64,000 nt of DNA from Escherichia coli (GTDB lineage: Bacteria; Pseudomonadota; Gammaproteobacteria; Enterobacterales; Enterobacteriaceae), in the NCBI RefSeq assembly GCF_013122565.1, contig NZ_CP053258.1; one strand, 5' to 3'. This document shows positions 16,478 through 17,620 of this stretch, piece by piece. The first letter of the stretch is position 1. Each line of letters starts with the position of its first letter. The notes beneath the pieces are model-generated. The model was not told the DNA's origin. It was given only the letters and a program-made list of their open reading frames with translations, and ran no database searches. Made by a program: the position numbers and the translations under genes.

Positions 16478-17620
16478 ATGGAATGCGATCTGCTGATGAT
16501 TAAAATTGAAAAAGTAATTAATAAAAATGACCTTAAGGCATTTATCGCTTTTCCGTCATCACTTTATCCCGACGATCCAAACTGGATACCCCCTTTATTC
16601 ATTGAACGCAACGAGCATTTGTCTGCGAAAAATCCGGGGACGGACCATATCATCTGGCAGGCGTGGGTGGCAAAAAAAGCGGGGCAGATAGTTGGGCGTA
16701 TTACCGCGCAAATAGATACCTTGCACCGCGAGCGTTACGGCAAAGATACCGGTCATTTCGGCATGATTGACGCCATTGATGATCCGCAGGTTTTTGCCGC
16801 GTTGTTTGGCGCAGCGGAAGCGTGGTTGAAGTCACAAGGTGCAAGTAAGATCAGCGGTCCTTTCAGCCTGAATATCAATCAGGAAAGCGGATTACTGATT
16901 GAAGGTTTCGATACACCACCCTGTGCGATGATGCCGCACGGTAAACCGTGGTATGCCGCGCATATTGAACAATTGGGTTATCACAAAGGCATTGATTTAC
17001 TGGCGTGGTGGATGCAGCGAACCGATCTCACTTTCTCTCCGGCGCTAAAAAAACTGATGGATCAGGTGCGCAAAAAGGTGACCATTCGCTGCATCAATCG
17101 CCAGCGGTTTGCCGAAGAGATGCAGATCCTGCGTGAGATTTTCAACTCTGGCTGGCAGCACAACTGGGGATTTGTGCCGTTTACCGAACATGAATTCGCG
17201 ACCATGGGCGACCAACTTAAATATCTGGTGCCGGACGATATGATCTACATCGCTGAGATTGATTCTGCACCCTGCGCGTTTATTGTCGGCTTGCCGAACA
17301 TCAACGAGGCGATTGCCGATCTGAACGGATCGCTCTTTCCCTTCGGCTGGGCAAAATTGCTGTGGCGTTTGAAAGTCAGCGGTGTGCGAACTGCGCGAGT
17401 ACCGCTGATGGGCGTGCGCGACGAGTATCAGTTCAGCCGCATCGGCCCGGTAATTGCGCTGTTATTGATTGAAGCCTTACGCGATCCGTTTGCCCGCCGG
17501 AAGATCGATGCGCTGGAGATGTCATGGATCCTCGAAACCAATACAGGCATGAATAACATGCTGGAACGCATTGGGGCGGAGCCGTACAAGCGTTACCGAT
17601 TGTATGAAAAGCAGATTTAA
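16478..17620 (+). CDS. yghO: YghO; putative acyl-CoA N-acyltransferase-fold protein (candidate lipid N-acyltransferase)
   Basis: 380-aa ORF; fold assignment is from memory of family annotation and is not verified here. Confidence 0.65.
   Translation: MECDLLMIKIEKVINKNDLKAFIAFPSSLYPDDPNWIPPLFIERNEHLSAKNPGTDHIIWQAWVAKKAGQIVGRITAQIDTLHRERYGKDTGHFGMIDAIDDPQVFAALFGAAEAWLKSQGASKISGPFSLNINQESGLLIEGFDTPPCAMMPHGKPWYAAHIEQLGYHKGIDLLAWWMQRTDLTFSPALKKLMDQVRKKVTIRCINRQRFAEEMQILREIFNSGWQHNWGFVPFTEHEFATMGDQLKYLVPDDMIYIAEIDSAPCAFIVGLPNINEAIADLNGSLFPFGWAKLLWRLKVSGVRTARVPLMGVRDEYQFSRIGPVIALLLIEALRDPFARRKIDALEMSWILETNTGMNNMLERIGAEPYKRYRLYEKQI

Follow-up and report, generated by a model that had tools for sequence, protein, structure and literature searches.

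YghO of Escherichia coli is a predicted tandem-GNAT orthologue of bacterial ceramide synthase, encoded opposite a set of predicted sphingolipid genes

In Caulobacter, formation of dihydroceramide requires CC_1154 (CCNA_01212), the gene for bacterial ceramide synthase, which has variously been called bcerS, cerS and aca (PMC9386255, PMC11324152). Adjoining cerS are the genes for LptF2/G2 (CC_1156/1155), which have been proposed to act as sphingolipid exporters, and for Caulobacter, Azotobacter and Pseudomonas luteola the neighbourhood of cerS has been discussed as including a flippase and a second copy each of LptF and LptG (PMC11324152). In E. coli BL21, AasR acylates AcpR, and serine palmitoyltransferase (Spt) prefers acyl-AcpR for the synthesis of 3-oxo-sphinganine; when this strain makes 3-oxo-sphinganine, thin-layer chromatography reveals spots migrating like sphinganine and ceramide, which the authors credit to ECD_02852 and ECD_02850, the latter being yghO (PMC9386255). 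Here we analyse yghO in a 64,000-nucleotide stretch of E. coli DNA (the window), where it lies at 16478..17620 on the plus strand, opposite minus-strand genes for Spt, AcpR, a CerR-like reductase and AasR. We put at roughly 0.8 the probability that E. coli YghO is orthologous to bCerS, the ceramide synthase of bacteria (CC_1154 = CCNA_01212 in Caulobacter; CerS/Aca), its enzymatic activity being predicted. This call is not new, having been published as a prediction in 2022: Padilla-Gómez et al. (2022) list ‘aca: CC_1154, yghO ECD_02850’ as an N-acyltransferase, an identification for which Olea-Ozuna et al. (2021) and Stankeviciute et al. (2022) had prepared the ground. In the present analysis the fold is confirmed independently, the genomic context is surveyed quantitatively, fusion proteins are described and the spt gene of the strain is found to be damaged.

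The homology between YghO and the Caulobacter protein is full-length. In a BLASTP comparison YghO and its Caulobacter vibrioides homologue (L083) share 44% identity over 365 residues, with two one-residue gaps and an E value of 1e-110. The published comparison of CC_1154 with ECD_02850 of E. coli BL21 gives 44% identity, 61% similarity and 98% coverage at 1e-107 (PMC9386255 Suppl. Table 2). The cut-off used in the field for the bCerS family is a BLASTP E value of at most 1e-30 with a coverage of at least 50% (PMC11334938), and the match between YghO and the Caulobacter protein far exceeds it. The original prediction had described YghO as supplying a step analogous to that of bacterial ceramide synthase; the two proteins are in fact homologous. 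No Caulobacter entry is found among the best 50 structural matches of YghO in AFDB50. As an observation in its own right, one YghO homologue has independently been named ‘Hypothetical protein associated with Serine palmitoyltransferase’.

YghO belongs to a very large family, with 6480 clusters (50% identity) found at E<=1e-3 and 1119 at E<=1e-30, from which 131 diverse full-length members were taken for a family alignment. The Pfam GNAT family PF00583 is matched by 16 of these 131 members at E<=1e-3 and by 55 at E<=0.1, and the profile built from all of them aligns residues 304–379 to motif A/B of GNAT proteins in the PDB, among them 3tt2 (the best match, E 3.5e-4) and 2ge3. YghO alone has no match in Pfam even at E<=10, none in NCBIfam, and only chance matches (E>=0.1) when phmmer is run against PDB sequences. 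The AlphaFold2 (AF2) model of YghO has a predicted local distance difference test score (pLDDT) of 97 and, taken together with Foldseek, accounts for the whole 374-residue chain as two fused GNAT domains. Of the two, the C-terminal one retains β4–α3 (motif A, with G306 and G317) and β5–α4 (motif B, with E341 and N349), as well as W344; a thioester-binding motif of this kind is missing from the N-terminal one. Every position conserved in at least 90% of the 131 members is present in YghO, including R68, R198, N223, W224, R301, G306, E341, W344 and N349. There is no transmembrane segment, the maximum Kyte–Doolittle score of any 19-mer being 1.36. YghO is predicted with high confidence to be a cytoplasmic, non-membrane-spanning tandem-GNAT protein and, by analogy with tandem GNATs of the MshD type, we infer that its C-terminal domain would be catalytic while the N-terminal domain would help to form the acceptor (amine) pocket.

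The acyl-CoA N-acyltransferase fold that the original prediction had proposed for YghO is thus borne out by the predicted structure; the fold is neither a DNA-binding one nor otherwise foreign to acyltransferases, and the family-conserved residues are all retained. The prediction had also named FemAB and GNAT folds together as comparisons, of which the match to GNAT acetyltransferases stands while that to FemAB is weaker. A transferase of the FemAB/FemX type was rejected: the Pfam family FemAB_like is matched by only 5 of the 131 family members, at E values of 0.008–0.1, and FemX ranks 31st or lower in Foldseek. Likewise rejected was a ceramide synthase of the TLC/Lag1 type, YghO having no Pfam TLC match, no transmembrane segment and a soluble α/β fold.

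The genomic neighbourhood of YghO homologues was surveyed by scanning one genome per species with a 14-sequence alignment, which yielded 80 loci, 56 of them with full 10-kb flanks; L083, from Caulobacter vibrioides, is one of the 80. Neighbours were called by running tblastn on these loci with the proteins of the E. coli cluster. Within 10 kb of the YghO homologue in the full-flank loci, Spt and AasR are each found at 33/56, and the CerR-like reductase and the LptF2+LptG2 pair each at 34/56. At 51 of the 56 there is either the LptF2+LptG2 pair or a gene for sphingolipid synthesis (Spt, AasR, CerR-like), and at the other 5 there is none of these; the LptF2+LptG2 pairs often lie directly downstream of the YghO homologue. 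A divergent layout, with AasR on the minus and YghO on the plus strand within 1.5 kb, recurs at 25 of the 80 loci and spans Enterobacterales, Pseudomonas, Halomonadaceae, Gemmatimonadota and several delta- and beta-proteobacterial lineages, which supports a shared function of aasR and yghO. In Serratia liquefaciens the five genes spt, acpR, cerR, aasR and yghO are arranged alike between wholly different flanks, and the module therefore moves as a unit. In Nitrosomonas and its relatives, the gene for the YghO homologue is instead the first of an operon that also contains lptF2, lptG2 and a nucleotidyltransferase-like gene.

Natural fusions join YghO-like domains to functions encoded in the same neighbourhood. 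One protein of 940 residues (P0191) combines a YghO-like domain with a fatty acyl-AMP ligase, and another of 752 residues (A0A9E6RH89 in AFDB) combines one with an LptF/LptG permease, while two YghO-like halves make up a third protein of 784 residues (P0121). The fusion to the ligase is a hint that AasR/AcpR may be the source of the N-acyl donor. Separately, the operon of Nitrosomonas eutropha (L063, 9965–15388) was seen to comprise the cerS homologue, a 274-residue nucleotidyltransferase-like protein, lptF2, lptG2 and a 425-residue protein with many hydrophobic stretches; spt lies elsewhere in that genome, and the organisation of the operon agrees with PMC11324152.

In the window, the four minus-strand genes opposite yghO have ends that abut or overlap, which fits a single operon. 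The gene for Spt (12107..13195) encodes 362 residues and carries an in-frame deletion of 28 residues, as is seen when it is aligned to the intact Spt of E. coli and of Serratia. Next to it is acpR (13195..13443), encoding a specialised acyl carrier protein of 82 residues which is identified by its open reading frame (ORF) and annotation and by the PP-binding domain of its Serratia orthologue. The next gene (13475..14389) encodes a CerR-like reductase of the NAD(P)-dependent epimerase/dehydratase family, a predicted 3-keto reductase by annotation and SDR-type NCBIfam matches; this gene appears as ‘epi’ ECD_02852 in PMC9386255. Nearest to yghO is the gene for an AasR-type fatty acyl-AMP ligase/acyl-ACP synthetase (14386..16107), which is annotated as such and matches the fatty acyl-AMP ligase family PRK09192 of NCBIfam at E 6e-262. 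RefSeq places the start of aasR at 16074; in six Enterobacterales the ATG at 16107 is conserved together with the sequence around it, and comparison of these sequences indicates that aasR probably starts there.

The divergent intergenic region (16108..16477) measures 370 bp if aasR starts at 16107, or 343 bp between the longest ORFs (16135–16477), and it is AT-rich, with 30% GC against 50–52% in the flanking genes. The arrangement originally described, in which yghO faces a four-gene operon across an AT-rich region of about 340 bp, is accordingly confirmed by measurement. The region presumably houses the promoters of both genes, and a consensus scan picks out a single weak σ70-like site, which is not above chance. 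In an alignment of the intergenic DNA of six Enterobacterales, similarity is confined to the ~40 nt proximal to aasR and to the ribosome-binding region, and the alignment reveals no shared operator; such inverted repeats as the E. coli spacer contains are imperfect and rich in A and T. With no conserved operator in the intergenic DNA, co-regulation of aasR and yghO is therefore put no higher than plausible.

On the far side of spt, second copies of the lipopolysaccharide-export permeases LptF (9926–10996) and LptG (10993–12072) are encoded on the plus strand, both recognised by NCBIfam TIGR04407/TIGR04408. These copies (9926..12072) adjoin spt, are of a kind linked to the YghO family and are candidates for sphingolipid export. 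Beyond them, the island between 4735 and 9895 was seen to encode three dTMP-kinase-like P-loop proteins, yghT, yghS and yghR, alongside the MOP-family flippase yghQ (7150–8499), a 274-residue protein without a family match (8499–9323) and a YtfJ-family protein (9332–9895). The island is probably part of the same system as spt–yghO, with roles that are perhaps in head-group addition or transport. No obvious homologues of the Caulobacter head-group genes CC_1152/1153 were seen in it.

The yghO gene itself is an intact ORF of 380 codons with an ATG start, and the RefSeq limits of ‘protein YghO’ coincide with it. The encoded protein shares 99% identity with P0001, the common YghO cluster of E. coli. 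In other genera the homologues have 374 residues, their first methionine being equivalent to window position 16496, and an AAGG Shine–Dalgarno sequence precedes the equivalent start in those genera, while E. coli does not have the AAGG. From these comparisons, the true start of yghO would therefore be either 16478 or 16496. At the other end, only 6 bp separate the yghO stop codon (ending at 17620) from that of the convergent gene glcC, which RefSeq annotates on the minus strand at 17627..18391 and which lies outside the module; these positions agree with those first reported, and the 6-bp spacing is identical in K-12. No intrinsic terminator was found between the two genes by a consensus scan, by which transcriptional interference is neither proven nor excluded. 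In Serratia the genes downstream of the yghO homologue encode a diacylglycerol kinase and a MatE transporter rather than glcC. The proximity of glcC is specific to E. coli.

The most serious alternative is that YghO is an intact but functionless remnant of a pathway which is decaying in E. coli, with neither substrate nor role in this strain; we regard this as a real possibility, albeit the less probable one. It draws on the state of spt in the window, where the protein has 362 residues instead of 390 owing to a clean in-frame 84-bp deletion which removes 28 amino acids EGRIGNKKVILAGTNNYLGLTFNHDAIA. The junction is near 13083, between two short GAAGG repeats. The deleted block, which aligns to residues ~59–86 of the S. 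paucimobilis SPT structure 2JG2 and is also kept in Serratia, contains the motif NNYLGL, which is conserved in α-oxoamine synthases. The deletion is probably inactivating, and Spt of this strain would then be inactive. With this first step of the pathway probably broken, YghO in the strain is likely to be an intact enzyme without an endogenous substrate. The case for decay is extended by K-12 MG1655 (L084, 3129043–3131340), in which IS5 (insH9) replaces the module from a truncated yghQ through the first codons of yghO; the 390-residue YghO annotated in K-12 is an IS5-fused remnant which bears the name ‘putative DNA-binding transcriptional regulator’. In addition, a match to the yghO region is missing altogether from about 16% of complete E. 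coli genomes, and one covering the greater part of it from about 24%, and the AT-rich promoter region, with its low GC content, is of a type of DNA commonly silenced by H-NS, as may be the case here.

Against decay stands the condition of most of the module. In the window yghO is full length with all conserved residues kept, and the remaining module genes are intact ORFs. The 84-bp segment of spt is present in 4097 of the 4134 complete E. coli genomes which carry spt, and 40 of the 40 best matches are intact; carriers of the exact deletion are thus at most 37 of 4134, a figure which is an upper bound only. The deletion is rare, and therefore recent, and says little about E. coli as a species. 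Among 5426 complete E. coli genomes, 4558 contain a match of 95–99% identity to a 1.8-kb stretch around yghO, at a median of one place per genome, and the region as such is kept at 95–99% identity in 4145 of the 5426.

A second alternative, which we consider unlikely, holds that YghO is a GNAT with a different acceptor, such as an amino acid or amino-lipid (as an N-acyl amino acid synthase), an amino sugar or protein lysines, and that its adjacency to spt in Enterobacterales reflects a different, though related, lipid product. The solved structures nearest to YghO are those of enzymes that acetylate small amines (such as glucosamine, the mycothiol precursor and aminoglycosides), faint Pfam matches to FeeM, LPG_synthase_C and FemAB_like occur in a few family members, and both the very large size of the family (those 6480 clusters) and the 5 of 56 full-flank loci without a sphingolipid or Lpt neighbour leave room for such acceptors. 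The ceramide synthase assignment is favoured over it by 44% full-length identity to a gene genetically defined in ceramide synthesis and by the tight, repeated linkage to spt, acpR, aasR and cerR. As regards protein lysines, the strain and plasmid tables of a lysine acetyltransferase screen list K-12 yghO among the genes. It is said not to be among the enzymes reported, and since the K-12 allele is fused to IS5 at its 5′ end, a negative in that screen would be weak. The third alternative, that YghO is a DNA-binding transcriptional regulator, has only database names behind it (the legacy ‘putative DNA-binding transcriptional regulator YghO’ of MG1655, b2981, several UniProt entries and ‘DNA-binding protein’ on some homologues) and is effectively refuted by the GNAT fold, whose two domains fill the 374-residue chain at pLDDT 97, and by the lack of any helix-turn-helix or other DNA-binding domain in Pfam or NCBIfam. 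The database names given to YghO relatives conflict with one another, including N-acetyltransferase, DNA-binding protein, dATP pyrophosphohydrolase and virulence-associated protein VagC, which looks like propagated misannotation.

Several points weigh against the identification of YghO as a ceramide synthase. The protein itself has no direct domain match in Pfam or NCBIfam, so that its place among the GNATs depends on the predicted structure and on profile matches at the level of the family. The family-conserved residues serve as a proxy for the active site, so that ‘catalytic residues present’ means only that those residues are retained. The Caulobacter sequence used in the comparison comes from a 2.7-kb contig of a metagenome-assembled genome titled Caulobacter vibrioides rather than from the CB15 reference, and its identity with CC_1154 is inferred from the agreement with the published statistics. 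In the literature searched, an enzymatic or genetic test of E. coli YghO is absent and native sphingolipid production by E. coli is unreported; the supplements of the 2024 PLoS Pathogens paper do not cover E. coli. In the strain studied here the sphingolipid pathway may be dead, its Spt being without 28 conserved residues. Finally, the order of acylation and reduction is disputed for Caulobacter, and the acyl donor is likewise not agreed.

If YghO is a ceramide synthase, the pathway encoded at the locus would begin with the loading of a fatty acid onto AcpR by AasR, followed by the condensation of acyl-AcpR with serine by Spt to produce 3-ketosphinganine. By homology, YghO would then acylate 3-ketosphinganine or sphinganine on the C2 amine, adding the second acyl chain, and the CerR-like reductase would act on the C3 keto group. 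Export might proceed via the MOP-family flippase YghQ and then LptF2/LptG2, as has been proposed for Caulobacter CC_1166, CC_1156 and CC_1155. The acyl donor may be acyl-CoA or possibly acyl-AcpR. Acyl-CoA is reportedly the donor used in the Caulobacter work of Stankeviciute and colleagues in 2022; acyl-AcpR is worth considering beside it, in view of the YghO–ligase fusion and of the position of yghO divergent from aasR. A broader proposal can be made, though it is doubtful as a whole: that most non-K-12 E. coli and many other Enterobacterales (Serratia, Hafnia, Pluralibacter, Erwinia, Pseudocitrobacter) would carry a complete, conditionally expressed ceramide pathway extending from yghT to yghO, with its own flippase and a second LptFG-type exporter; that YghO may take its acyl group from AasR/AcpR and not from acyl-CoA, as the ligase fusion hints; and that in strains with a broken spt and an intact yghO, such as this one, YghO could N-acylate sphingoid bases acquired from the host or the diet.

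To our knowledge, E. coli is usually taught as sphingolipid-free. The spt–acpR–cerR–aasR–yghO module is present in about three quarters of complete E. coli genomes. The current annotations of YghO (‘protein YghO’, and in K-12 ‘putative DNA-binding transcriptional regulator’) merit correction, given the fold, the homology and the genomic context. The E. coli module, in BL21 or a B2 strain, is also a tractable system in which the order of acylation and reduction, and the nature of the acyl donor, could be addressed for bacterial ceramide synthesis.

Of the systems described to date, Caulobacter bCerS is the one which YghO most resembles: the two are homologous over their full length, are similar in size (374–384 residues), share a soluble or peripheral GNAT-type fold without a transmembrane domain, and are linked to spt, acpR, cerR, aasR and LptF2/G2. 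They differ in the layout of their loci. In E. coli, yghO is directly divergent from aasR in a compact module, whereas the Caulobacter gene is about eight genes away; Caulobacter cerS adjoins lptG2 and the head-group genes CC_1153/1152, while the E. coli cluster is without obvious equivalents. FemX/FemAB proteins (1ne9, 1xe4) are also tandem GNAT-like, with Foldseek E values of ~4–7e-9, but their match to YghO (TM-score 0.43–0.45) is clearly weaker than that of the acetyltransferase-type tandem GNATs, and they depend on aminoacyl-tRNA, whereas the YghO locus has no tRNA-related context. With the eukaryotic ceramide synthases (Lag1/CerS, TLC), YghO shares its predicted chemistry, the N-acylation of a sphingoid base; these enzymes are polytopic membrane proteins, however, of a fold unrelated to the soluble α/β GNAT fold of YghO. 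The tandem GNATs compared with it structurally are MAB_4324 (7q3a), the glucosamine N-acetyltransferase of C. acetobutylicum (5kf1), clavulanate ORF14 (2wpw) and MshD (1ozp). Their identity to YghO is 12–14%, and YghO is longer by ~50 residues, with inserts such as the helix at 284–295. The known enzymes among them acetylate amines that are soluble; for YghO, by contrast, the predicted donor group is a long acyl chain and the predicted acceptor the amine of a lipid.

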